From: a virus
Reading direction: 5' to 3' (one strand)
Length of the DNA: 64,000 nucleotides
Virus record (IMG/VR): IMGVR_UViG_3300042197_002234
Span: 64,001-128,000 of that record
Made by a program: the position numbers and the translations under genes. This document shows, in pieces, positions 51,953-64,000 of the stretch (the stretch's first letter is position 1; each line of letters starts with the position of its first letter). The notes below the pieces were generated by a model, which did not search any database, had not been told where the DNA came from, and saw only the letters and a program-made list of their open reading frames with translations.

Positions 51953-52096
51953 TTTTTCCTTATTTTAATTTTTATGTTTATTGAACCCCACTTCGTTGGT
52001 AGTTAGCCAACTCAACTGTTACAAGAACAGGTGGACCTCATCAACAAGGTTTCAAGGATAAATATAGTAGTATCTGTTTTTTTTGTAAATGTTTTT

Positions 52097-52939
52097 TTAA
52101 TTTGTAGTACAATTAACAAATTCGTATCCATTACTTGTTTTTCTCCAAACAATAAATACAAGTTCAATTTTACTCAAATCCCAATTGGAATTATAATCAA
52201 TAACACGGGACCAATGGTACACCTCACCACTTGACAAATTGTTAAAAATTTCTTCACCGAAAGCTCCTGATGTGGTTGCGGATTTAGCCAATACGTGGTG
52301 ATGAATGTGGGGATTTTGAGAACTACCATTTTGAGATGCCGTAATCTCTTTATGTAAAAATAATGCAGACATGGTATATACACCTGATAAATTTTCAAAG
52401 GATTTAATATACACATTAACATTTAATTTACCAGCGTTTTTACCCGCACCTTGGGTTATGTGACTACCAATAGATAATTTTGGCGTTTGACTATTTTTAT
52501 TTGTTATTTCACCTGGTATTCCTGAAGTACTTGTACCTACAAAATTGTCATTGACAAAGAAATTAGGCGTGCCTGTATACTGCCATTTTGTAGAAAATTC
52601 ATCAACCAAAGGACCGTTGTCAGGTGTGGTTAACCCATCGTTAATTTGTAAAGACATTGCCAACACATTACCTTTATGGTTGTTATATAATTCCTCAAAT
52701 CTAGTGACACCCCATCCACCACAAGGACCACACCAAGTTGCGGTAAATTTACCAAAAATGGAGTTTTGTGTACTATCAACATACACACAAGACCCGTCAT
52801 TTATAATCGCATTTGGGTTATAATTAACCGATTTTGAATCGGTGCATCCTTTAATTGCCGAATCATCATCAACCAATAATGTTGGTTCTTGACAACTAGC
52901 CAATATAAAGAATAATAAAAATAATAAGTAGTTTTTCAT
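52097..52939 (-). CDS. Omp28-related thioredoxin-fold lipoprotein
   Basis: Lipobox LASC, GCTD..S.NYNP.A..DGSC repeat, TATWCGPC, GTP.F.V, C-terminal Ig-like domain with H.HVL. Confidence 0.75.
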   Translation of the reverse strand: MKNYLLFLLFFILASCQEPTLLVDDDSAIKGCTDSKSVNYNPNAIINDGSCVYVDSTQNSIFGKFTATWCGPCGGWGVTRFEELYNNHKGNVLAMSLQINDGLTTPDNGPLVDEFSTKWQYTGTPNFFVNDNFVGTSTSGIPGEITNKNSQTPKLSIGSHITQGAGKNAGKLNVNVYIKSFENLSGVYTMSALFLHKEITASQNGSSQNPHIHHHVLAKSATTSGAFGEEIFNNLSSGEVYHWSRVIDYNSNWDLSKIELVFIVWRKTSNGYEFVNCTTN

Positions 52940-53006
52940 AATTAATTTTGAAATATTGTATAGATTATATATACATAAATATAATAATTTTTACTTTAAT
53001 TTAAAG

Positions 53007-53504
53007 TTATTTTATTTCAAACGCACAACGGACAACACGACGTTTTTTAATTGCATCTTCAGTGTTACCAATAACAACACCATCTTTAATGGTAAAAGCG
53101 TGACCACGAACAAGAATGAAAAAAGTACCTTTAGGATTTTGTTTTATAAAAGTACCAACGGTCATTTCACGTTTAATTTTTTGACCTTTAACTTTAACTT
53201 CATAAACCAAAGAATTTGCCATCCAATTATTAGTACGATTACCAACTGTATACACACGTTTACCGTTAACTTCAGTATTATTGTCAGACATATTAACCAA
53301 TTTTGATGAGGTCATAAACGTACCTTTTCTTGGTTTTCTTTTAAAATGTTCGGCAACATATTGGTGAGCAAAATCATAGTCAACTTCAAATGACGAGGCA
53401 AAAGCTCTAACAACACAATCATTTGTTTCACCTTTAGCGATTGAGGATTCAAAATATCCTTTAATAGCTTCGTATCTGTTGCAATATGGGAGTCTGTCAT
53501 TCAT
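53007..53504 (-). CDS. Hypothetical protein (NDCVVRA..H putative Cys hydrolase)
   Basis: Cys/His motifs; TATCTTTG promoter 53509-53516 sets the start. Confidence 0.5.
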   Translation of the reverse strand: MNDRLPYCNRYEAIKGYFESSIAKGETNDCVVRAFASSFEVDYDFAHQYVAEHFKRKPRKGTFMTSSKLVNMSDNNTEVNGKRVYTVGNRTNNWMANSLVYEVKVKGQKIKREMTVGTFIKQNPKGTFFILVRGHAFTIKDGVVIGNTEDAIKKRRVVRCAFEIK

Positions 53505-53555
53505 AATACAAAGATACAAAAAAAATCTGAACCAAAAAAATATTGGTAAAAAAAG

Positions 53556-53629
53556 TGGACCCTGCAGGGCTTGAACCTGCGACCCCTGCATTATGAGTGC
53601 AACGCTCTAACCATCTGAGCTAAGAGTCC
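53556..53629 (-). tRNA. tRNA-Ile2/Met (CAT)
   Basis: Full cloverleaf, loop CT CAT AA, C4-G69, A73 favours Ile2. Confidence 0.85.
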
Positions 53630-53819
53630 TAAAAATAAAAAATGATGTGGGGTATTCCTATTTAGTTTAAATTAACCAGTAGTCTGTTAATGTACACTTG
53701 TTGGTTTTACATCCCCACACCAATAACACACTCATAAGCATTCTACTTCCAGCTCCGAGAAATCGTATCTAACTTAGCCCATCTCACCGCTGTATGGGTA
53801 CTTAAGTTTATGTGTTTTG

Positions 53820-53891
53820 TAGCCCCTACGGGAATCGAACCCGTCTTTTTAGGATGAAAACCTAATGTCCTAACCGATAGACGAAAGGGCC
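53820..53891 (-). tRNA. tRNA-Glu (TTC)
   Basis: TTAGG TT TTC AT CCTAA; T-loop TTCGATT. Confidence 0.9.
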
Positions 53892-53949
53892 ATAAATAAA
53901 AGGTGTTGAATCATCCCTACGCCATTATAGGAACACCTTTTGTTTTAAT

Positions 53950-54425
53950 ATTTGGCGAATTAATATTCCTACCTATATTCCCAAGATTCGTCAGAACATA
54001 GTAACCATCCAAGGTAGGCCTATACTATTACACTCCGTCCATATTTACTCACCTAATCAGATTAGTCATAGGTTTTTCAGATACAGCGTTCAGTGCTACC
54101 CTCAGGACATCTTCACCCTACCCCATAGTTACGTGGTGGTCTCACTCGGAAGAAGAGTGTGTATTGTAGAATTGTCCAGTATTTCTACAACTTGTGGATT
54201 GTATTATGACTAATTAAAGCCCCTAACCCCCTTAATCCATAATGGGGAACTCTTGTTTTAAAGATTCCAACATACCTGAAAGAACTTCCCCTTCTCAGTG
54301 AACACCGTTTATAAGGTGTTATATGTTTTTCACTTTGTGTGTATCTATCCCCCATAGCCCCAAAGACTTCTAGTCGGGGTTCACACACCATAACAGTCGA
54401 GTACTACTGTTAATCGTGGGGTCAT
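53950..54425 (-). ncRNA. Candidate ~470-nt multibranched ncRNA in the tRNA array
   Basis: Perfect helices 54061-54070/54205-54214, 54164-54171/54183-54190, 54391-54397/54406-54412, and others. Confidence 0.55.
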
Positions 54426-54429
54426 TTGC

Positions 54430-54521
54430 TGATTAAAGGGAATCGAACCCAATCCTCCGACCCCGTTTACCCCTATGAGGGGGCCACTAGGGTCAGTATG
54501 CCCATTACATCATAACCAATC
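54430..54521 (-). ncRNA. tRNA-like RNA with extended anticodon arm (apex CAT)
   Basis: D-like and T-loop (GGGTTCGATTCCC) present; weak acceptor stem. Confidence 0.5.
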
Positions 54522-54568
54522 GTCAGTTTCGAACCTGACAGTTCAAGGTTAATTACTCCTTGAGTTTG

Positions 54569-54646
54569 TTGCGATTTGTGGACTCGAACCACACAGGGGG
54601 TGCGACCCAACTCGGTTCATGAGACCGACCTTACACCTGTATCGCA
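54569..54646 (-). ncRNA. D-arm-reduced tRNA-like RNA (CAT) with long variable arm
   Basis: TCGGT CTCATGA ACCGA; variable arm GGG/CCC; TGTGG TTCGAGT CCACA. Confidence 0.6.
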
Positions 54647-54651
54647 GTTTT

Positions 54652-54736
54652 TGGTACTCGGAGCGGGACTCGAACCCGCACGGACAATGTCCAGCAGATT
54701 TTAAGTCTGCCTTGGCTACCTTTACAACACCCGAGC
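54652..54736 (-). tRNA. tRNA-Leu (TAA)
   Basis: GCAGA CT TAA AA TCTGC; variable arm; encoded CCA. Confidence 0.95.
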
Positions 54737-54808
54737 GTTTATTTCAAAGAACACTACAAAGATAAAGAACAAATTTCATATGAACAATACCTTTATAATT
54801 TTTTTTTG

Positions 54809-54912
54809 TCCACTCTGTTGGATTCGAACCAACTTACTCACTCTATATTCGGATACTGCAGTATCAGGCGATATAGAGGTCATCGTGTTTTACCACATAA
54901 CACTAAGAGTGA
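54809..54912 (-). ncRNA. tRNA-like RNA with extended anticodon arm
   Basis: Acceptor TCACTCT/AGAGTGG, D arm GTGTT/AACAC, T arm GTTGG TTCGAAT CCAAC; long stem CTCTATAT/ATATAGAG + GATAC-TGCA-GTATC. Confidence 0.65.
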
Positions 54913-54917
54913 ATTTG

Positions 54918-54991
54918 TAGTCGGGGTGGGAATTGAACCCACGACCTTGATGATATAAGCATCCTGCTCTCGACCCCTGAGCTACCCGACC
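54918..54991 (-). tRNA. tRNA-Ile (TAT)
   Basis: GGATG CT TAT AT CATCA; full cloverleaf. Confidence 0.88.
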
Positions 54992-54997
54992 AAATGC

Positions 54998-55205
54998 CCC
55001 CACCCTGAGATTCCAGGTGAGTAGATATATCGGTTTTCTTTCTTTCAATAAACCTGTGGGTCTTACCCTCTTAAAATTAGTCAACACTACTGGGAGGGAT
55101 TGTGTCGGTTCCCTTTGTTCCCACGATGTCCCACTCGCGCCGTAGACATTCTGCGGAATCATTCTTAAAGTCTTGATTCGAAGACTCTGAGTATCTCTTA
55201 CTCAT
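54998..55205 (-). ncRNA. Candidate structured RNA
   Basis: Hairpins tgagta/tactca, agtctt/aagact, ccgcaga/tctacgg, gtggg/cccac. Confidence 0.4.
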
Positions 55206-55207
55206 TG

Positions 55208-55279
55208 AGCTTCCACCCAGGGTCGAACTGGGGACTACTGATTACAAGTCAGTTATTTTACCTGCTAAACTACAGAAGC
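55208..55279 (-). tRNA. tRNA-Thr (TGT)
   Basis: ACTGA CT TGT AA TCAGT. Confidence 0.92.
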
Positions 55280-55289
55280 TTATTTATCG

Positions 55290-55436
55290 TATCTCCGATG
55301 GGAATCGAACCCACCTTGTAAATTACTTGTCAATTGCTCTGACTTATCTCTACAAACTAGTATAAGTAGTGTTAGGCCAATTAACCATCATTTACCCACT
55401 CACTGTTTTTGGTGCGACCTCAACAGATACGGAGAT
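55290..55436 (-). ncRNA. tRNA-top-half RNA with a non-tRNA ~115-nt body
   Basis: Perfect acceptor ATCTCCG/CGGAGAT + A73; T arm GTGGG TTCGATT CCCAT; no anticodon arm. Confidence 0.65.
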
Positions 55437-55442
55437 GTTTTG

Positions 55443-55522
55443 TACCGAAGGAGAGACTCGAACTCTCACGCCATATGCAGATGCTTCTAAAACATCCGTG
55501 TCTACCATTCCACCACTTCGGC
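55443..55522 (-). tRNA. tRNA-Leu (TAG)
   Basis: GATGT TT TAG AA GCATC. Confidence 0.92.
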
Positions 55523-55633
55523 AATTTGTGGGTAGGGTCCTCCCACATTAGACTTAAGGTTTCGGATTCTTTAAAGACAATTCCTAAATGTCAACCGCCC
55601 GCATGTCCTTCACCTTAAAGCGGGAGCCCCTTA

Positions 55634-55709
55634 TGGAGCGAGAGACGAGATTTGAACTCGCGACCCCAACCTTGGCAAGGTTGTGCTCTACCAACTGAGC
55701 TACTCCCGC
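55634..55709 (-). tRNA. tRNA-Gly (GCC)
   Basis: CAACC TT GCC AA GGTTG; CCA encoded. Confidence 0.95.
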
Positions 55710-55714
55710 AATTA

Positions 55715-55914
55715 AAAGAAACTTTCCTTCTACGCTCACCGTAGTTTTGGATTTTACTGATGGTTGGTTCCCCATCACCTGTTATGAGTGCACCATAGAG
55801 CAGGGTCCATCACAGAGTCCTTCGGGTCATGTACCTTCGTTATAGTTGCGACCTATTTGAAGCCGAAGTACCTTTCAACGGTGCTAATCCGTCTTCTGTA
55901 AGGAAAGGTTCTTT
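55715..55914 (-). ncRNA. Candidate 200-nt multibranched RNA
   Basis: 14/15-bp closing helix 55715-55729/55900-55914 enclosing at least 4 hairpins. Confidence 0.55.
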
Positions 55915-55917
55915 TTG

Positions 55918-55990
55918 AGCAGGTGGAGGTAATCGAAACCTCATCTTCAGAGTGGAAATCTGACATAATATGCCATTATACGACACCTGC
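55918..55990 (-). tRNA. tRNA-Gly (TCC)
   Basis: TCAGA TT TCC AC TCTGA. Confidence 0.9.
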
Positions 55991-56085
55991 GTATTCGAGT
56001 CAGAGTAGTCACGGCCACCTCTGTTCCTTCTGACTCTTATTATAACCGTGGCAAAATGTGGCTCGACCCAAGTTATAATCATTAG

Positions 56086-56160
56086 TTGCGGGGGTAGGAT
56101 TCGAACCTACGTCATTCGGCTTATGAGACCGAGCTGGAACCAACTCCAGTCCACCCCGCC
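56086..56160 (-). tRNA. tRNA-Met (CAT), initiator-like
   Basis: TCGGT CT CAT AA GCCGA; 1:72 mismatch. Confidence 0.85.
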
Positions 56161-56165
56161 ATTTG

Positions 56166-56237
56166 CGGTCCGTGCGGGAGTCGAACCCGCCACACTGCCG
56201 TGACAGGGCAGCATTATAGCCGATTAACTAACGGACC
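56166..56237 (-). tRNA. tRNA-Asp (GTC)
   Basis: CTGCC CT GTC AC GGCAG; G73. Confidence 0.93.
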
Positions 56238-56243
56238 TAATTG

Positions 56244-56318
56244 TGGAGACAGTGGGAATTGAACCCACCACACTTTCCTTGCAAGGGAAAATCGCCAAGC
56301 CTTGGTACATGTGTCCCC
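56244..56318 (-). tRNA. tRNA-Ala (TGC)
   Basis: TTTCC CT TGC AA GGAAA; G3.U70. Confidence 0.93.
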
Positions 56319-56414
56319 ATTTTTTTTTCTTCACCAATATGTCAAAGAACCTTTATCTTTTTAACAACACTACAAAGTTACAAAAGAAATTTTAAAAAAA
56401 CAACATCCTTGAAA

Positions 56415-56446
56415 AACAAAAAACCCACCTTTTTATGGGTGGGTTT
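56415..56446 (-). terminator. Attenuator terminator 1
   Basis: AAACCCACC-CATAAAAA-GGTGGGTTT TTTG. Confidence 0.9.
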
Positions 56447-56471
56447 GGTATTTCATAGTGTTAGTTTAAAA

Positions 56472-56543
56472 TCATACCATACCCACCTGAGTCAATCCTA
56501 TTGCTTCAGTTGTGCCTAAAAGTATGATATCTAAATTTCTCAT
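56472..56543 (-). CDS. Leader peptide 1 MRNLDIILLGTTEAIGLTQVGMV (not in the ORF track)
   Basis: ATG 56543, TGA 56472; A-rich upstream; last codons complementary to the terminator 5' strand. Confidence 0.8.
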   Translation of the reverse strand: MRNLDIILLGTTEAIGLTQVGMV

Positions 56544-56616
56544 TTTTTGCGTTATTGTTTTTTCTTAAATATACCCATTTTTAAAAAAGTATCAATATTA
56601 AGTTTAAAAATACCGA

Positions 56617-56811
56617 TTATTTTTTTGCTTCGGTAATTTTTTCTTTAAACTCAAACCTAATTGTATCACCAACACTATACTTTCGATTGGTACCAATAAT
56701 ACCCGTTTCTAAATGATTTTCAGCGTTTTTTACCTCATAGGTATAGGTTCCGTTAACATCAATGTCACAACAAAGAACCAAAAAAAGTTTAATAATTACA
56801 ATCTCTTTCAT
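56617..56811 (-). CDS. Hypothetical protein
   Basis: MKEIVIIKLF.. start is more plausible than 56883. Confidence 0.45.
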   Translation of the reverse strand: MKEIVIIKLFLVLCCDIDVNGTYTYEVKNAENHLETGIIGTNRKYSVGDTIRFEFKEKITEAKK

Positions 56812-56815
56812 ATGA

Positions 56816-57283
56816 TTAATTTTTAGTAAATGATTTATCTGCCCAAGTTTTAGCACCCATACGCTCCCAAATTTGGATATCACACATTTCAGGGAAAGAA
56901 GTTCTCATGTCACCAACAGTCAACACTTCCAAGAACCCTTTGTCAATACCAAACCACTTTCCGCTCTTGGTGGTGTATACGTTCATCCAATGACCGTACT
57001 CATTTTTAACCTGAATGTTAACCAAGGCGTTTTTCTTGAATCCAGCGATTACGTTTTTAGGGTAATCAGTTGTGTCACTCATTGTAATGAAACCAGCCTT
57101 ACATTTTACTGCCACACGAAACTCATATTTTTTATCAGTGTCTTTAATGTGGTTTGACACCATTACGTTTATTAATTTGTCTTTGATTCGAGTTTTGAAT
57201 GAACCGAAGAATACATCTCCAGCCATTGTTCCTACAGTTTCTACGATAATTGAGCTTGGGGTGTTTGTGTTGGTATTTGTCAT
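56816..57283 (-). CDS. Hypothetical protein
   Basis: TATCTTTG promoter 57305-57312. Confidence 0.6.
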   Translation of the reverse strand: MTNTNTNTPSSIIVETVGTMAGDVFFGSFKTRIKDKLINVMVSNHIKDTDKKYEFRVAVKCKAGFITMSDTTDYPKNVIAGFKKNALVNIQVKNEYGHWMNVYTTKSGKWFGIDKGFLEVLTVGDMRTSFPEMCDIQIWERMGAKTWADKSFTKN

Positions 57284-57342
57284 ATTATTTCCGATTTTGT
57301 TATACAAAGATACAACAAAATTTCAAACTACCAAAACTTTTT

Positions 57343-57804
57343 TTAAAAAAGATAAGAATGTCTGTATTGTAATGGAATTGCTAACCCAAAACCCCAATAT
57401 TTTTCATTAGACACACTATAAGCAATTGCTATATCCCATTGATTTCTTTTTTGAGTTATCATCTTTAATGGGTGAAATTTAACCCAAACTTCAGGTTTTA
57501 TTTCTTTATTGGTATTTGGTAATGTATTGAATTTAATACCCGTACCGATAACTAATCCATTTTTTAAAACACCATAATTAATTCCAAATCTGTTTAAATA
57601 AGGGCTTGGATTCATTTGTCCTATCGGTGCTGAAACCATCCACATATTGTAACCTCCTCCCGCATGAATACCAAACCCTTTGGTGTCCAAGTTTTCCATA
57701 GATAACATAAAACTTTGTTCACCAGGAAAATATGTAATACCTGAGTACTGACCCCACACTTTTGACGTAAAAAATAACGTCAATATAAAAATTATTTTTT
57801 TCAT
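57343..57804 (-). CDS. Secreted outer-membrane beta-barrel-like protein
   Basis: Signal peptide, alternating hydrophobic strands, terminal Phe. Confidence 0.5.
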   Translation of the reverse strand: MKKIIFILTLFFTSKVWGQYSGITYFPGEQSFMLSMENLDTKGFGIHAGGGYNMWMVSAPIGQMNPSPYLNRFGINYGVLKNGLVIGTGIKFNTLPNTNKEIKPEVWVKFHPLKMITQKRNQWDIAIAYSVSNEKYWGFGLAIPLQYRHSYLF

Positions 57805-57807
57805 TTG

Positions 57808-57893
57808 TGGAAGTGGTAGGATTCGAACCTACAAGTTTACCGCAAGGGACCTGTTTTACAGACAGGCGAGCACACCATTTGCTCAACACTTCC
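57808..57893 (-). tRNA. tRNA-Tyr (GTA)
   Basis: CCTGT CT GTA AA ACAGG; variable arm. Confidence 0.93.
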
Positions 57894-58104
57894 AAGTTAG
57901 GAAAGAGGAAGATGGTTCAGTGGACATCCTCTTTTACGATTGGCGTTACTCAGGTGTATATCTCCAAACTCCGATGATACCGACCGATATACACTCTCAT
58001 GTCATAGGTATCACCATTCCCCAATCAACCTATAATTTTAAACTAACACCATGACTCCTTTCGACCTTGCACGAGTCGTATCATTCAACTCTGTGTTAGT
58101 TTTG

Positions 58105-58179
58105 CTCCCTCGACAGGATTCGAACCTGTGACCCAACGGTTAACAGCCGTTTGCTCTAAACCTACTGAGCTACGAAGGA
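58105..58179 (-). tRNA. tRNA-Asn (GTT)
   Basis: AACGG CT GTT AA CCGTT; G73. Confidence 0.93.
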
Positions 58180-58184
58180 ATTTG

Positions 58185-58255
58185 CACGGATAGAAGGACT
58201 CGAACCTCCACCAACAGTTTTGGAGACTGGGATGCTACCATTACACCATATCCGT
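58185..58255 (-). tRNA. tRNA-Trp (CCA)
   Basis: CCAGT CT CCA AA ACTGT; G73. Confidence 0.92.
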
Positions 58256-58262
58256 GTGTTTG

Positions 58263-58336
58263 AGGTCAGAGTCAGATTTGAACTGACGAATACTTGTTTT
58301 GCAGACAAGCCCCTTAAACCACTTGGGTATCTGACC
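58263..58336 (-). tRNA. tRNA-Cys (GCA)
   Basis: CTTGT CT GCA AA ACAAG; U73. Confidence 0.93.
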
Positions 58337-58393
58337 TTAGAGTGTAGTGGGGGGTACCTCCCCTGTGGTTACTACACATTTAACCCACTTTAG

Positions 58394-58468
58394 TGTCCCC
58401 GACAGGGCTCGAACCTGTGACCCGTACATTAAAAGTGTACTGCTCTAATCCAACTGAGCTACGAAGAC
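58394..58468 (-). tRNA. tRNA-Lys (TTT)
   Basis: GTACA CT TTT AA TGTAC. Confidence 0.93.
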
Positions 58469-58531
58469 ATAATTTACGGCTCAAAGAATCTGAGTTTGTG
58501 GCTCAGAAACGCCCAATTTTGAGCCGTATTG

Positions 58532-58606
58532 TAGTCAAGGTTGGACTTGAACCAACGACCTTCTGCGTATCAGGCAGACGCTCTAAACCGACTGAGCTAC
58601 ATGACT
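58532..58606 (-). tRNA. tRNA-Ile (GAT)
   Basis: TCTGC CT GAT AC GCAGA. Confidence 0.9.
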
Positions 58607-58695
58607 ATGTTTTAGTTTTACTGAGCAAATATAACCATTTTTTGGTATATAACGCTCTGTTTTACTATTTTTTTTTTAATATTACCCGACATCAA

Positions 58696-59241
58696 TCATT
58701 TTGATTCAAACTTTTTAATAAAATTTTCACGATAATTGTCAATTATTTGTGAAATTTCACTTCTATACTTTGAGTGTATGTAGTGATGGTGTGTCGGACA
58801 TAACGGTATTAGGTTTTCTATTGAGTTATTAGTATGAACTTCATCGTAGTGGTGAACCGCAACTATTTTATTTTCACCACAAACAACACATTTGTGTTCA
58901 TGATGTTCAAAACAGATTCTACGATAACCATTTTTAGTTTCCGAATATTTACCCCAATTAGGGTTATTTTCACCACTTCTAAAATAAGTATTAGAACAAG
59001 AATGAGAACATGTAACTTTTTCATCTCTATTACCTTTTGAAGTTTCAAAAGATTTGTTACAAACAGGACATTCTTTAATTATTCTATTATAGATTAATTT
59101 TCTACTCCTCAAATGACTAATATCCACCCCATTTTGGTTTATGAATGATTCAAACTTTTTTCTATTTGACCCATTATCATATCCAAACATTTTTATTATC
59201 GCTTCTGACTTAGTTTTCGATGTTTTAATTATATCCTCCAT
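58696..59241 (-). CDS. HNH endonuclease inserted in the tRNA array
   Basis: CPVC..CSHSC, CVVC, VHHYDE.HTNN..ENL.PLCPTHH; late motif 59245-59253. Confidence 0.85.
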   Translation of the reverse strand: MEDIIKTSKTKSEAIIKMFGYDNGSNRKKFESFINQNGVDISHLRSRKLIYNRIIKECPVCNKSFETSKGNRDEKVTCSHSCSNTYFRSGENNPNWGKYSETKNGYRRICFEHHEHKCVVCGENKIVAVHHYDEVHTNNSIENLIPLCPTHHHYIHSKYRSEISQIIDNYRENFIKKFESK

Positions 59242-59304
59242 ACTAATAAATATCTAAATTTGTCGTAAAGTCAAATTTTAATCAAAACTTGTTTAAACGA
59301 TTAG

Positions 59305-59379
59305 TCGGGTAGACTGGACTCGAACCAGCACAATGTCCTCATCCCAAATGAGGCGACCTACCAATTGGTCTACTACCCG
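59305..59379 (-). tRNA. tRNA-Pro (TGG)
   Basis: CCTCA TT TGG GA TGAGG. Confidence 0.93.
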
Positions 59380-59389
59380 TTACTTTCAG

Positions 59390-59475
59390 CGGAAGGAGAG
59401 GGGCTCGAACCCTCGCGGCTTTGACACCCTAACAGTTTAGCAAACTGCCCCCTTCACCAACTTGGGTACCCTTCC
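59390..59475 (-). tRNA. tRNA-Ser (GCT)
   Basis: GCAGT TT GCT AA ACTGT; variable arm; G73. Confidence 0.92.
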
Positions 59476-59512
59476 TTTTTTTCCGACCTAGCTCGGGAAC
59501 ACACATCGGATG

Positions 59513-59584
59513 TAGTTCTTGAAGGACTTGAACCCTCAATTCCTCGTCCGTAGCGAGACGTGTTATCCATTACACCAAAGAACT
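59513..59584 (-). tRNA. tRNA-Arg (ACG)
   Basis: TCTCG CT ACG GA CGAGG. Confidence 0.92.
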
Positions 59585-59588
59585 ATTT

Positions 59589-59678
59589 TGGCGGAAGCGA
59601 AGGGAATCGAACCCCCAACACGCTATTAACGTGCTACTTGTTTTCAAGACAAGCTCCTCGTCCATTCGGACCACTTCC
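59589..59678 (-). tRNA. tRNA-Ser (TGA)
   Basis: CTTGT CT TGA AA ACAAG; CCA encoded. Confidence 0.95.
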
Positions 59679-59782
59679 ATTTTTTTAGGTCGTGACGAAC
59701 CCATCTGTCACTTCTTAATAGATTCTTGTAGTTTACTTACCGCGGTTCAATCCGTTACTAACAGGGAACCCAACCTATTTTG

Positions 59783-59854
59783 GGTGTAGGGACGGTACCG
59801 ACCCGTCTTATCTAGTTCCACAAACTAGTGCATCACCTTAATGCTTCAAACACC
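59783..59854 (-). tRNA. tRNA-His (GTG), divergent
   Basis: CTAGT TT GTG GA ACTAG; G-1/C73; atypical T-loop GTCGGTA and 2 acceptor mismatches. Confidence 0.7.
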
Positions 59855-59863
59855 ATGTAAAAT

Positions 59864-60000
59864 TGATGGTAATTGGATTTATCAGGAATCCCGTCCACGA
59901 CTTCACACACCATTAGAGAGTTGAGTATTTCTACTTATCCTTAGTGTGTACCCTTGCGTCACGTCTCTCCACGCTTACCAATCTACGCCTTGTACCATCA
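59864..60000 (-). ncRNA. Candidate 137-nt structured RNA
   Basis: Perfect closing helix tgatggta/taccatca. Confidence 0.4.
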
Positions 60001-60006
60001 ATTTTG

Positions 60007-60140
60007 TAGTCAGGGTCGGACTCGAACCGAATACCGTTCAAGACGGATTAGACAACCTTACGACTCCATAGAACCCACAAGTGTCTGGGACTATTGGTCT
60101 TGGGGACTCGGGTACCATCCCTCATTACGTCCACCTAACT
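60007..60140 (-). ncRNA. tRNA-top-half RNA with expanded body
   Basis: Acceptor AGTTAGG/CCTGACT + A73; TCGG TTCGAGT CCGA; no canonical anticodon arm. Confidence 0.6.
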
Positions 60141-60215
60141 ATTTACCCCACTTCACCAGCTTAACGGACTGGCTGCCATGTGGGAGTGGGGGTTTCCTGT
60201 TATTTCAGGACTCCG

Positions 60216-60288
60216 TGGTGAGAGCTGGAATCGAACCAGCGGCACGTAGGGCTTCAACCTACTGCTCTACCTACTGAGCTATCACACC
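60216..60288 (-). tRNA. tRNA-Phe (GAA)
   Basis: GTAGG TT GAA GC CCTAC. Confidence 0.92.
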
Positions 60289-60298
60289 ATATAAAAAA

Positions 60299-60435
60299 TG
60301 ATAGTGTTGGGATACCCGTCTCGTCCCAATCTTAACTGCTTAATCGTAGTTTTACGAGGCCTCGGCAGAGGGTGTTGAACACTGTGAACCTTACAACTAC
60401 TTTGTCGACTTTCATTGTAAGAGTGACCACTATCA
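60299..60435 (-). ncRNA. Candidate 137-nt structured RNA
   Basis: Perfect closing helix tgatagtg/cactatca; ttggga/tcccaa. Confidence 0.4.
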
Positions 60436-60569
60436 ATATTTTTTCTATTTCAAAGAACCCTTTTCGTCTGGGGTGTAGGTAACCCTATCAAACCTACACC
60501 CCCATCGTTTGTGAATACAAAGTTACAAAACATTTTTCTAACTAACAAGTACCCACTTATTTTTTTTTG

Positions 60570-60643
60570 TAGTCCCTGTCGGATTCGAACCAACGACCCT
60601 CTGCATGTAAGGCAGATGCTCTAACCAACTGAGCTAAAGGACT
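60570..60643 (-). tRNA. tRNA-Val (TAC)
   Basis: TCTGC CT TAC AT GCAGA. Confidence 0.93.
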
Positions 60644-60649
60644 ATTAAG

Positions 60650-60719
60650 TTGCGTGTTCGGGGTTCGAACCCGATTGACCTTCCTTATGAGAGAAAGTTC
60701 TTTTCCCCTAAGCCACGCA
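60650..60719 (-). tRNA. tRNA-Met (CAT), divergent D arm
   Basis: TTTCT CT CAT AA GGAAG; TCGGG TTCGAAC CCCGA; short D arm. Confidence 0.6.
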
Positions 60720-60726
60720 ATTTATG

Positions 60727-60797
60727 TTACCCCCCAAGGATTCGAACCTCGATTAAGTGGACCAAAACCACTTGTCCTGCCATTAGACGAGAGGGTA
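60727..60797 (-). tRNA. tRNA-Gln (TTG)
   Basis: AGTGG TT TTG GT CCACT. Confidence 0.92.
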
Positions 60798-60830
60798 ATT
60801 TTAGGTTACCAATATGTCAAAGAACCCGTA

Positions 60831-60865
60831 AAACAAAAAACCCCGAACTTTTTATGGTTCGGGGT
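60831..60865 (-). terminator. Attenuator terminator 2
   Basis: ACCCCGAAC-CATAAAAA-GTTCGGGGT TTTTTGTTTT. Confidence 0.9.
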
Positions 60866-60897
60866 CTGTTATCTGTTTTACTTTCAAATATCCACAA

Positions 60898-60987
60898 TTA
60901 TTCCGAACCAATATTTTGCACACGTGGATACCAGCAATTTTTAAATTGCGACTTACTGATAATGACCATATGTTTATTAGTTCTCAT
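60898..60987 (-). CDS. Leader peptide 2 MRTNKHMVIISKSQFKNCWYPRVQNIGSE (not in the ORF track)
   Basis: ATG 60987, TAA 60898; TAACTTTG promoter 61011-61018; last codons complementary to the terminator 5' strand. Confidence 0.8.
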   Translation of the reverse strand: MRTNKHMVIISKSQFKNCWYPRVQNIGSE

Positions 60988-61047
60988 TGTATTTTAATTT
61001 ATAAGTATTACAAAGTTAAGAAAAATTTTAGACAAGTCAAACTTTTT

Positions 61048-61305
61048 TTAAAATCTTTTCGCAATTTTAAGAATTGTTTCCTCTTCTTCCCTAGTTAACA
61101 TCAACCTACTGTTAGATAATTTATCCAAAGCGATTCCCCATTCTAACTCCATAATGTTTTTTCGTTCTTCAGGAACATTGTAATAAGTTGGTTTGATATG
61201 ACCATCCTCGGTCAGAATATCAATCAATTCTTTAATTTCTCTTTTTGAACAAGCGTCAACAAAATCGCTTGGGTCTATGTCTACATAAGATTCAAATTCT
61301 GGCAT
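61048..61305 (-). CDS. Hypothetical protein
   Basis: Clean ORF. Confidence 0.6.
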   Translation of the reverse strand: MPEFESYVDIDPSDFVDACSKREIKELIDILTEDGHIKPTYYNVPEERKNIMELEWGIALDKLSNSRLMLTREEEETILKIAKRF

Positions 61306-61317
61306 ATTTTTTTAATA

Positions 61318-61551
61318 TTAAATGGTTTCGTCAATTTTATCTTGAATTTCAATAATTTTTGATTCAATGTATCTTTCTAATTTTTCTGACACATTAAGAT
61401 ATTGTTCCCTTAGTTTATGAAATTCTTCATCATTAATTTCTTTAAAAGAACTATAATGCTTGAAACAATAGTGGAATCCTTCCGCACCTATTCTGTATCG
61501 AACCATTTCAAAGTTCTCTAATTCTTCATGTAAATAATCTATATTACTCAT
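61318..61551 (-). CDS. Hypothetical protein
   Basis: Coupled ORF. Confidence 0.6.
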   Translation of the reverse strand: MSNIDYLHEELENFEMVRYRIGAEGFHYCFKHYSSFKEINDEEFHKLREQYLNVSEKLERYIESKIIEIQDKIDETI

Positions 61552-62267
61552 TGGTTTAATTTTCTTTTACAGTTATTACAAAATTCTTTACGGTTAGTAC
61601 CATTAACTTTCATTAAACAGTCTTCGTCGTCGCAGTGATTTAGACCAAAGTTGTGACCTAATTCATGATTAGCAACATTCTGTAGGTTAGAAATTCTATA
61701 GTTACCGTTAATCTTTAATTGATAAGTACTAACAACAGCGGCGTCATGGTAAAATCTTGCGTAACCACTAATTAATTCAAGGTTATTCTCATGAGAACAC
61801 AAAGGATGATTAGTAACATATACGTGACGACCATCACCATCACCTTCTTCCAAGTTTAAAGTTTCAAGAGCATTAACATATTCACCGTTAATGAAATAAC
61901 GAGAGCTAGGGTTTGAATGTGGATTACCGATTTTAGTTTCTAAACCGTAAAAATTTTCGATTCCCTGGCAAACAGTCTCCAAATCTTCATGACTGTAATC
62001 ACCAAAACCATGAACATATACAATGTTTTTCGGTTTTTTAGTTTCAGATTTAACAACAGGTTTAGTTGATGGTTTATTTTTTACATCAACTGATTTACCA
62101 TATTTACCTAACTTATGTTCTTTGTCATAAGAATCCGCATATTCAGCAGCACTTTGTTTGAATTTATCAATACTATAGTTGTGTTTTTCGGCAAGTTCAA
62201 ATAAAGAACCAACAATTACTACAACAATACAAAGATTTACAATTGATTTTAATGGTGATGTTTTCAT
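61548..62267 (-). CDS. Membrane-anchored metzincin zinc protease (archaemetzincin/M54-like)
   Basis: N-terminal TM, HELGHNFGLNHC..CLM..FC..C. Confidence 0.85.
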   Translation of the reverse strand: MKTSPLKSIVNLCIVVVIVGSLFELAEKHNYSIDKFKQSAAEYADSYDKEHKLGKYGKSVDVKNKPSTKPVVKSETKKPKNIVYVHGFGDYSHEDLETVCQGIENFYGLETKIGNPHSNPSSRYFINGEYVNALETLNLEEGDGDGRHVYVTNHPLCSHENNLELISGYARFYHDAAVVSTYQLKINGNYRISNLQNVANHELGHNFGLNHCDDEDCLMKVNGTNRKEFCNNCKRKLNQ

Positions 62268-62321
62268 ACTACAAAGATACTAAAATTATTTTAACTACCA
62301 AAAAATAATGATAAATATTTG

Positions 62322-62393
62322 TAGGCCCACCAGGACTCGAACCTGGAATAGAAGCTTAGAAGGCTACTGTTATATCCCTTTAACTATGGGCCC
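62322..62393 (-). tRNA. tRNA-Arg (TCT)
   Basis: GTAGC CT TCT AA GCTTC. Confidence 0.92.
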
Positions 62394-62402
62394 TAATCTA
62401 AA

Positions 62403-62582
62403 TTAGATTTGTTTGATGATGTACTTATGACCTGAATCTGAGTTTTTTTCAAAAAGAGACCTCATTTTTTCAGCCTCTTCTTGAGTTTCAAACTCCATTA
62501 CATCATCTTGACCGTCTAACAAAACAACAGGTAATTCAACGTTAGTTGTCATCTGTTTAATCATTTTAACTATAATATACAT
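62403..62582 (-). CDS. Hypothetical protein
   Basis: Start uncertain. Confidence 0.5.
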   Translation of the reverse strand: MYIIVKMIKQMTTNVELPVVLLDGQDDVMEFETQEEAEKMRSLFEKNSDSGHKYIIKQI

Positions 62583-62616
62583 AACACTGTAAAGGTAATA
62601 CAAAAAATTAAAATAA

Positions 62617-63705
62617 TCAAACTCTTTTTTTACCACCAAAAACATTAGGAGTTAAATTAGTTCTATTTGGTCTGACATTTTTTAGCATATTTGCTTGAGC
62701 TGATAATGAGTTTTTCTTTAATTCTAATGTTTCTTGTCTATTTTTGGGTTTGTTTTGTATTACAGGTTTAATATTTTTTTCTGTTGGTTTATATATAGAC
62801 CTATTATTGATAATTTGATTAACTAAATCGTATTTAACAGTATCTTTAATTTTATCTTTATTAGGATTAAATGGTTTATCATTTATTTTAAATAAAATAT
62901 CATTAAGTAAGTTTAAAGATGTTTGTTTATATTCTAAATCAGTATTATTTCTAAAATCATTATCATAATCATAAACTAATTTTAGTTTTTTATAGGGTGG
63001 TAAAGAATATATATATTTAGCAGTTCTACTTTGTAGTGTTGAATCTTTAATCGCCCCAGTTATTGAGTACGATTGATTTTCATGCCAATTATAAATGTAT
63101 GTAATTTCGTTAATAAATTTGTAATGTTCATTACCCGCCATTTCTAACATAGGTAAACCTATTCCAATATCTACTGCAGCTTTTAAATAATCATTTTCAA
63201 AAATTAAATCTTTTAAATTTATTGACCTAAATAAAAAAGCCCTATATGTTCTCATATGTGAAAAATTCCATGGAGTACTTCTAGCTTTGTCAGGATTTGC
63301 TTTACCATAATTCATACTTCTACCATTTGTATCAACCCATTTAGTACCGCAAATCCAAATATTTTGGTCAGTATAGATTTTATTGATTAACCCAAAAACA
63401 TTATTATCCAACAATTTATCATCACCATCAATTTCTATAATAACATCAGCCCATTCAATATCACCATTATTATAAATTATATCTATAAAGTTTTTAGCTT
63501 TGTATTTTTTTTGTTTATTTTTTATTAAAACAAATCTTTCATCACCATCTATTGTTTTTTCTGCGATAGAATACGAATTGTCGGTAGACATATCGTCAAC
63601 AAGATAACAAACAAAATTTGTAAAATATTGATTTTTTATTGAATTTATACAATCTGATATATATTTTTCAGAATTCCAAAATGTTGATACAACTACTAAT
63701 TTCAT
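62617..63705 (-). CDS. Glycosyltransferase family 2
   Basis: WNSEKYI..CI.SI..Q, VDD.STD, IDGDD. Confidence 0.85.
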   Translation of the reverse strand: MKLVVVSTFWNSEKYISDCINSIKNQYFTNFVCYLVDDMSTDNSYSIAEKTIDGDERFVLIKNKQKKYKAKNFIDIIYNNGDIEWADVIIEIDGDDKLLDNNVFGLINKIYTDQNIWICGTKWVDTNGRSMNYGKANPDKARSTPWNFSHMRTYRAFLFRSINLKDLIFENDYLKAAVDIGIGLPMLEMAGNEHYKFINEITYIYNWHENQSYSITGAIKDSTLQSRTAKYIYSLPPYKKLKLVYDYDNDFRNNTDLEYKQTSLNLLNDILFKINDKPFNPNKDKIKDTVKYDLVNQIINNRSIYKPTEKNIKPVIQNKPKNRQETLELKKNSLSAQANMLKNVRPNRTNLTPNVFGGKKRV

Positions 63706-63769
63706 AAAAAAGGGGTATGGTCTATTTATAAATAGGTTCACTAACTTATTTTTTAAAAAATATCATAAA

Positions 63770-64000
63770 ATGTCTGAAAACAAATACATAATTCCTTCGC
63801 CGAGAGTGTTTCATGTTATACCGTGGAATAGTGACAAAAATATTGGTAAGTCATATAATGAGATGATGGCGATGGTTAGAAGTAATGATTGGGTTTGTTT
63901 TTTAGATGGAGATGCGGTTCACACAACATCATTTTTTGGTGTTAGGATTGAGGAGGTAATTAAAAATAATCCTGATTATTCTTTATTTACTTGTTACACA
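63770..64000 (+). CDS. Partial GT2-like protein (runs off the window)
   Basis: MSENKY..NIGKSYN...DWVCFLDGDA. Confidence 0.6.
   Translation, partial: MSENKYIIPSPRVFHVIPWNSDKNIGKSYNEMMAMVRSNDWVCFLDGDAVHTTSFFGVRIEEVIKNNPDYSLFTCYT

Follow-up and report, generated by a model that had tools for sequence, protein, structure and literature searches.

tRNA genes are usually regarded as constitutive or growth-rate controlled. The locus described here, in which a short open reading frame (ORF) and an intrinsic terminator stand ahead of a block of viral tRNA genes, raises the question of whether such genes can be switched by the decoding of a leader peptide and, if so, which codons that leader responds to. 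The window, i.e. the whole stretch of DNA that was analyzed (64,000 nucleotides), corresponds to bases 64001–128000 of an IMG/VR virus record, a metagenomic sequence of 195,527 bases from an uncultured virus with a G+C content of 31.6%. A preliminary description, made from the letters of the window, had proposed that the ORF belongs to an attenuator controlling the tRNAs behind it. Judging from sequence features, we are fairly confident that the element is a multivalent transcription attenuator of the leader-peptide (ribosome-mediated) type, standing as a gate before a phage tRNA operon, and that slow reading of the leader codons would probably result in more of the matching tRNAs being made.

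Two blocks of tRNA genes

ARAGORN finds 25 tRNA genes genome-wide, all on the minus strand and located between 53555 and 62393 of the window; the features described below lie on the minus strand as well, and coordinates are those of the window. Block 2 begins with tRNA-Gln(TTG), a CAT tRNA-like sequence (60650–60719) and tRNA-Val(TAC), which together span 60569–60797 and have the promoter of the leader as their sole promoter. The rest of the block (57807–60288) consists of Phe, His (marginal), Ser(TGA), Arg(ACG), Ser(GCT), Pro, an HNH-like ORF, Ile(GAT), Lys, Cys, Trp, Asn and Tyr. Block 1 (53555–56316) contains Ala, Asp, Met, Gly(TCC), Gly(GCC), Leu(TAG), Thr, Ile(TAT), Leu(TAA), Glu and Met. 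The preliminary description had listed Met and His among the tRNAs of block 2 on a par with the rest; the other listed tRNAs are indeed there, but these two are only marginal calls. The His(GTG) gene (59853–59782) scores 30.2 bits in Rfam, with a cut-off of 29, and is called by ARAGORN only with a relaxed threshold, while the presumed Met gene (60719–60650) resembles a tRNA but scores low (22.7 bits), and its CAT anticodon is plausible. The arrays of relatives hold His and Met at corresponding places.

A distant blastn search with the region 60500–62300 against a GenBank phage collection returned tRNA similarity only and no annotated relative. The promoters and the rRNA-type boxA discussed below point to a Bacteroidota-type host.

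Promoters and the boxA element

On the minus strand, the elements ahead of block 2 follow each other in the order promoter, leader ORF, terminator, boxA and tRNA-Gln. The leader transcript is predicted to be driven by a Bacteroidota-type promoter (TTTG-N19-TAACTTTG) at 61011–61041, which was found by pattern search and is conserved in three homologous loci (alignment A1). Promoter calls were made with Bacteroidota-type boxes, whose pattern occurs 10 times in the window where 4.2 occurrences are expected; a scan with the sigma-70 consensus gave 45 sites against 42 expected and was uninformative. Between 61011 and 60525 there is no Bacteroidota-type −7 box, in agreement with the earlier claim that no promoter separates the terminator from the first tRNAs, and tRNA-Gln, the CAT tRNA-like gene and tRNA-Val therefore depend on readthrough of the terminator. 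This dependence is strict for these three genes but does not extend to the whole block, as the genes from Phe onward would also be fed by an internal promoter-like site (TTG-N20-TAACTTTG, 60548–60518) that is accompanied by a boxA-like element (60465–60446) and lies ahead of tRNA-Phe (60446–60548 in all). The paralogous attenuator ahead of block 1 has a similar arrangement, with a promoter-like site (TTG, 20 nt, TAACTTTG) and a boxA at 56333–56403, between its terminator and tRNA-Ala. Because of these promoter-like sites, which were likewise found by pattern search, the attenuators are not the sole input to most of the tRNAs, for which they probably add onto a basal input.

The 19-nt boxA-type element at 60808–60826 starts two bases after the terminator tail, is followed ten bases further by tRNA-Gln, and has an identical copy at 56333–56351. 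What the preliminary description had called boxA-like turns out to be a real element of the rRNA type, as judged by exact sequence match. Its 18-nt core (the first 18 bases) recurs exactly in at least 116 viral stretches and, among the matches listed, these viral cores lie almost always 8–15 nt before a tRNA and often between two tRNAs. The exact 18-mer is also found in 63 bacterial genome stretches, mostly from Bacteroidota, many of them in the 16S–23S spacers of rRNA operons, after the 16S 3′ end and tRNA-Ala. We considered whether the element could be a hidden promoter and rejected this, since it sits just before or between tRNAs (8–15 nt before their starts) and inside host rRNA spacers; by sequence and placement, it is a transcribed rRNA-type boxA. 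The core is thus identical to that of the boxA in rRNA operons, whereas the phage element lies downstream of a regulated terminator and directly before tRNA genes. In bacterial genomes, the motif matches rRNA operons or unrelated contexts, without leader ORFs.

The leader ORF and its terminator

The leader ORF spans 60898–60987 and comprises 29 codons followed by TAA, in the frame and with exactly the peptide that had been quoted for it (60987–60898, minus strand). Codons 4–25 make up the sensor part and the last four codons lie inside the antiterminator strand. Downstream, an intrinsic terminator (60867–60838) forms a hairpin of 11 pairs, six of them G-C, with a loop of 8 nt and a T-rich tail. 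Four regions can be distinguished in the leader transcript. For region 1 (60975–60983, codons 2–5), the minimum-free-energy structure of the whole leader predicts pairing with region 2 as long as the leader is free of ribosomes. Region 2 (60903–60913) is the antiterminator strand; it contains TGGTTCGG, overlaps the last codons of the ORF and is invariant in all four members of the leader family. Region 3 (60855–60867) contains CCGAACCA and covers the 5′ arm of the terminator and the first loop bases, as defined by the terminator call, RNAfold and duplex energies. Region 4 (60828–60848) is the 3′ arm together with the T-rich tail, as defined by the terminator call and the full-leader fold.

Direct reading of the sequence upholds the claimed eight-of-eight pairing: TGGTTCGG (60910–60903, minus strand) and CCGAACCA (60862–60855) are fully complementary. 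RNAfold forms this antiterminator helix once the 3′ arm of the terminator is omitted; with the 3′ arm included, it returns the terminator plus a pairing of codons 2–5 with the antiterminator strand (1:2 and 3:4). The latter 1:2 helix has 9 bp in the minimum-free-energy fold (60983–60975 with 60913–60905), and the full-leader fold has an energy of −49.3 kcal/mol (z = −6.1). The terminator and the antiterminator are therefore predicted by folding to be mutually exclusive, with a 1:2 helix predicted as well. Every sequence-level part of a leader-peptide attenuator is present at the locus: an ORF with a promoter, a terminator, an antiterminator, cognate codons and a region 1.

The paralogue, attenuator 1 (56421–56543), consists of a 23-codon leader (56543–56472) and a terminator (56446–56421) whose loop is the same as that of terminator 2 and whose stem is different. 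It has its own complementarity, as GGTGGGT at the end of the ORF pairs with ACCCACC in the 5′ arm. In both leaders codon 2 is AGA (ATG AGA), where leaders elsewhere mostly have ATG AAA, and the AGA-reading tRNA-Arg(TCT) gene (62321–62393) belongs to neither gated block, lying by itself upstream of attenuator 2.

A simpler view of the hairpin would be that it terminates transcription of the upstream protein genes (62267–61048), that the ORF arose by chance, and that the tRNAs are transcribed from an unrecognized promoter or by leaky readthrough. Terminators at the ends of gene clusters are common, with 38 in this genome, and DNA of such a low G+C content yields many short ORFs. Against this, the upstream gene and the ORF are separated by a consensus promoter, and pairing of an ORF end to the 5′ arm occurs at only two of the 38 intrinsic terminators genome-wide, both ahead of tRNA blocks, with duplex energies of −14.3 and −20.4 kcal/mol; the remaining terminators all reach −6.3 kcal/mol or weaker. 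Together with the codon coverage (P < 1e-4) and the conservation of ORF, frame and pairing in other phages, both described below, this leads us to give the chance-ORF explanation hardly any credence. We therefore continue with the reading of the element as an attenuator.

Match between leader codons and the downstream tRNA block

The leader peptide had first attracted attention because it contains 17 different amino acids. This count is correct but is weak evidence when taken alone, since random 29-residue windows of the phage proteome give P = 0.03. The codons themselves are far more telling: each of the 13 ARAGORN tRNAs from Gln to Tyr has a cognate codon in the leader, as the preliminary description had paired them (P = 7.5e-5, for the 28 codons after the start, with random 28-codon windows from the phage's own long ORFs as the null). 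Conversely, block 2 reads 22 of these 28 codons (P = 0.008 in random proteome windows), and both values were jointly reached in none of 200,000 random proteome windows. The codons that block 2 cannot read are ACT, GGT and GAA, plus AGA, which is served by the stand-alone upstream tRNA-Arg(TCT).

As the phage has two leaders and two blocks, each block can be held against the other. Leader 2 has 22 codons that are read by block 2 versus 4 that are read by block 1, while leader 1 has 16 codons read by block 1 versus 5 read by block 2 (Fisher p = 3.4e-5 for the own-versus-other split across both leaders). The codon match, which is far beyond chance, is to the leader's own block and not to the other block of the same phage.

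A class of leaders in viral contigs

Elements of this kind were searched for in other viral contigs with a codon-blind detector that requires a terminator, a tRNA no more than 200 nt downstream, and an ORF of 14–50 codons ending shortly before the stem, and that chooses the ORF by pairing energy alone. The resulting class comprises 89 elements, which come from 73 viral contigs and represent 48 distinct leaders. Its leaders are 22–44 codons long, mostly start with Met-Lys, and have their stop codon 19–37 nt before the stem. Of 24 representative leaders, only 11 have a strict TAnnTTTG box in the 70 nt preceding them.

Three of the contigs (L120, L047 and L094) contain homologues of leader 2, with the same order of tRNAs behind them. 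In their alignment (A1), the promoter and the start codon are conserved, and TGGTTCGG, the terminator and the boxA are invariant. The conserved core of the peptide shows synonymous third-position changes (AAG/AAA, CAA/CAG, TGC/TGT and CCA/CCG/CCC), and a 3-nt indel is in-frame, so that the frame is kept. Synonymous changes combined with an in-frame indel are the signature of a decoded frame.

Conservation of the core in four phages could also mean that the ORF is there for its product, a functional micropeptide, that it has a promoter and a terminator of its own, and that it stands before the tRNAs incidentally. Yet across the class, the peptides have no common sequence past the first residues, and their composition differs exactly as the downstream tRNA sets do; moreover, it is RNA pairing and not peptide sequence that constrains the last codons. 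We accordingly find a micropeptide very unlikely and keep to a leader whose codons, and not whose product, matter.

The specificity seen within the window holds across the class. In 24 non-redundant leader/block pairs, the own block reads 61–78% of the leader codons versus 42–51% after permutation (61% with strict wobble; 78% with relaxed wobble and the last six codons excluded). The own-block match has a z of 8–9 and was not equaled once in 50,000 permutations. Seen from the other side, leaders contain a codon for 94% of the tRNAs in their own block, versus 71% when tRNAs are compared with other leaders (same 24 pairs). Eight contigs carry two leaders, and a comparison within these contigs controls for the codon usage of the phage; here, sensor codons read by the own block only number 243 versus 43 read by the other block only (Wilcoxon p = 6e-4). 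The match reaches the level of isoacceptors, with CGA and CGC found in leaders ahead of blocks with Arg(TCG) and Arg(GCG), AGA with Arg(TCT), and ACC and ACT with Thr(GGT). One Thr/Ser-rich leader (L037) precedes three Ser and two Thr tRNAs.

These comparisons bear on the most serious competing explanation, in which the switch is real but senses global translation capacity or amino-acid supply (as under starvation, host shut-off or ribosome-targeting stress), its broad sampling of codons making it a general speedometer. Leader-peptide attenuators respond to charged tRNA, as in trp and his attenuation, and amino-acid starvation would open the gate too; in addition, the large leaders sample 13–18 codon families. 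A general sensor would need no exclusion of the codons of the other block, yet such an exclusion is seen in the two-leader contigs, and the extension of the match to isoacceptors is a second point against it. We thus regard a purely global sensor as improbable, and a gate tuned to its own tRNAs as the better account.

The RNA pairing covaries as well. In 21 elements whose stems are highly diverse, the mean duplex energy between antiterminator strand and terminator arm is −15.5 kcal/mol when both belong to one element and −8.5 kcal/mol when the arm is taken from another (p < 5e-5); the own arm is the best partner in 13 of the 21. For the 1:2 duplex the effect is modest (−16.4 kcal/mol for own versus −13.4 kcal/mol for permuted partners). 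An ungapped pairing search missed bulged antiterminators (the L008 type, one family), which were recovered by duplex folding.

Cognate codons are not spread evenly along the leaders. In the last six codons, which make up the antiterminator strand, the match is lost, with about 40% of codons being cognate; at 7–27 codons from the stop the share is mostly 70–100%, and it is highest at 11–14. This profile fits a ribosome footprint that needs to stay clear of region 2.

Evolutionary change between close leader variants gave no significant signal: substitutions agreed with differences in tRNA content in 22 cases versus 13 (p = 0.18). One leader family offers an anecdotal case, to be read beside this pooled p of 0.18, in which the variant of contig L087 departs from the common form (L103) at eight codons; the block behind this variant is limited to Trp, Ile, Phe, Gly, Asp and Gln, and all eight changes lead to codons of these six tRNAs. 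Within the gated block of two contigs from related phages (L142 and L143), ARAGORN calls a tRNA whose anticodon, TTA, reads TAA, a stop codon.

Proposed mechanism

The sequences show the anatomy of the element, its specificity, its covariation and its codon match; that the ORF is translated, in which direction the switch works, that Nus factors are recruited and which physiological signal is read are inferences, as follows. Host RNA polymerase would start at the promoter at 61041–61011 and transcribe the 29-codon ORF, which samples at least one codon for every tRNA encoded at 60797–57807. If decoding is fast, the ribosome would reach the stop codon, where it is expected to cover region 2 (60913–60903) while falling short of the stem, 19–37 nt away in the class; the hairpin at 60867–60838 could then form, and transcription would terminate before the tRNAs. 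If decoding of any sampled codon is slow, which could stem from a scarce, uncharged or cleaved tRNA, the ribosome would stall upstream and leave region 2 free to pair with the 5′ arm, resulting in readthrough. When no ribosome is present, region 1 would pair with region 2, which again would lead to termination.

After readthrough, the boxA presumably sets up Nus-factor antitermination for the untranslated array, and the polymerase would go on to transcribe the genes from Gln to Val, the CAT tRNA-like gene included, and then the remainder of the block. Such a loop would be self-limiting, as more phage tRNA would mean faster reading of the leader, thereby shutting the gate.

Comparison with known regulatory systems

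The element resembles the leaders of ilvGMEDA (Ile/Leu/Val) and thr (Thr/Ile), which likewise contain a translated short ORF with regulatory codons and sense more than one amino acid. In these leaders, too, the 3′ end of the ORF is part of an antiterminator that excludes an intrinsic terminator, and a 1:2 helix leads to termination by default. The differences lie in what is sensed and what is regulated. Whereas the ilv and thr leaders contain runs of codons for one to three amino acids and regulate biosynthetic enzymes, the phage leader contains 13–15 codon families once to three times each (up to 18 elsewhere in the class) and would regulate tRNA genes; unlike them, it is also phage-borne, has a Bacteroidota-type context, and is followed by a boxA. 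The Rfam models Thr_leader and Phe_leader score 27.6 and 25.8 bits, respectively, against a cut-off of 55, with only the terminator part aligning, and the leader element matches no Rfam family at threshold.

Attenuation by a leader peptide is known for a gene of the translation apparatus: in E. coli, pheST responds to the Phe codons of its own leader, pheM. There, one amino acid is sensed, and a chromosomal synthetase operon is regulated, in which the phage element differs. Leader-peptide attenuation also exists in Bacteroidota, as exemplified by the Bacteroid-trp leader motif in Rfam; this motif concerns a single amino acid and a biosynthetic operon, and it had no match in the Rfam scan of the tRNA region. 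T-box riboswitches are similar in being terminator/antiterminator switches that report tRNA status and feed back on the supply of charged tRNA. They bind uncharged tRNA directly via a specifier codon and without translation, whereas the sensor of the phage element is an ORF; the T-box Rfam model gave no match at E ≤ 1 in 52000–64000.

A full-text literature search found no published case of leader-peptide attenuation of tRNA genes. We lean towards the view that Bacteroidota phages run their tRNA arrays as closed-loop supply circuits, in which each leader samples the codons of its own tRNAs, detects a shortage and lets the matching set be transcribed, and that this constitutes an undescribed class of tRNA-gene regulation. 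The shortage could come from decay of host tRNAs, from anticodon nucleases or from a mismatch in codon usage. If true, this would explain how large phages dose their tRNA sets and would provide a testable link between phage tRNAs and the depletion of host tRNAs, including depletion by tRNA-cleaving defenses. The leaders would also be natural sensors of decoding speed that cover many codons and could be put to use as reporters, and the combination of a short MK-initiated ORF, ORF-end/terminator pairing and a boxA would serve as a signature for annotating phage tRNA operons and their regulatory units.

Other features of the tRNA region

Several further features were noted in and around the arrays. 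Just 5′ of the leader promoter, a 239-aa ORF (61548–62267, minus strand) contains a zinc-metallopeptidase motif region, with scores of 31.7 bits for Peptidase_M54 and 27.7 bits for Peptidase_M10. The HNH-like ORF between Pro and Ile of block 2 (58696–59241, minus strand) encodes 181 aa, and its match to HNH_2 is weak (E = 0.005, below the cut-off). Near 60003–60050, the stretch 60006–60166 (minus strand) has a tRNA-like 3′ half, consisting of a T arm and an acceptor strand, and ARAGORN with a relaxed threshold calls a candidate intron-containing tRNA with the anticodon CTA there. Two long stretches of the arrays are without an ORF or tRNA (53891–54652 and 60289–60445, both minus strand), the latter beginning directly after the promoter-like site and boxA-like element ahead of tRNA-Phe; both may be unknown structured RNAs. 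Lastly, block 1 contains a freshwater-1 RNA (Rfam RF02979) at 55752–55814 (minus strand), between Gly(TCC) and Gly(GCC), which scores 76.3 bits and is thereby above the cut-off of 72.
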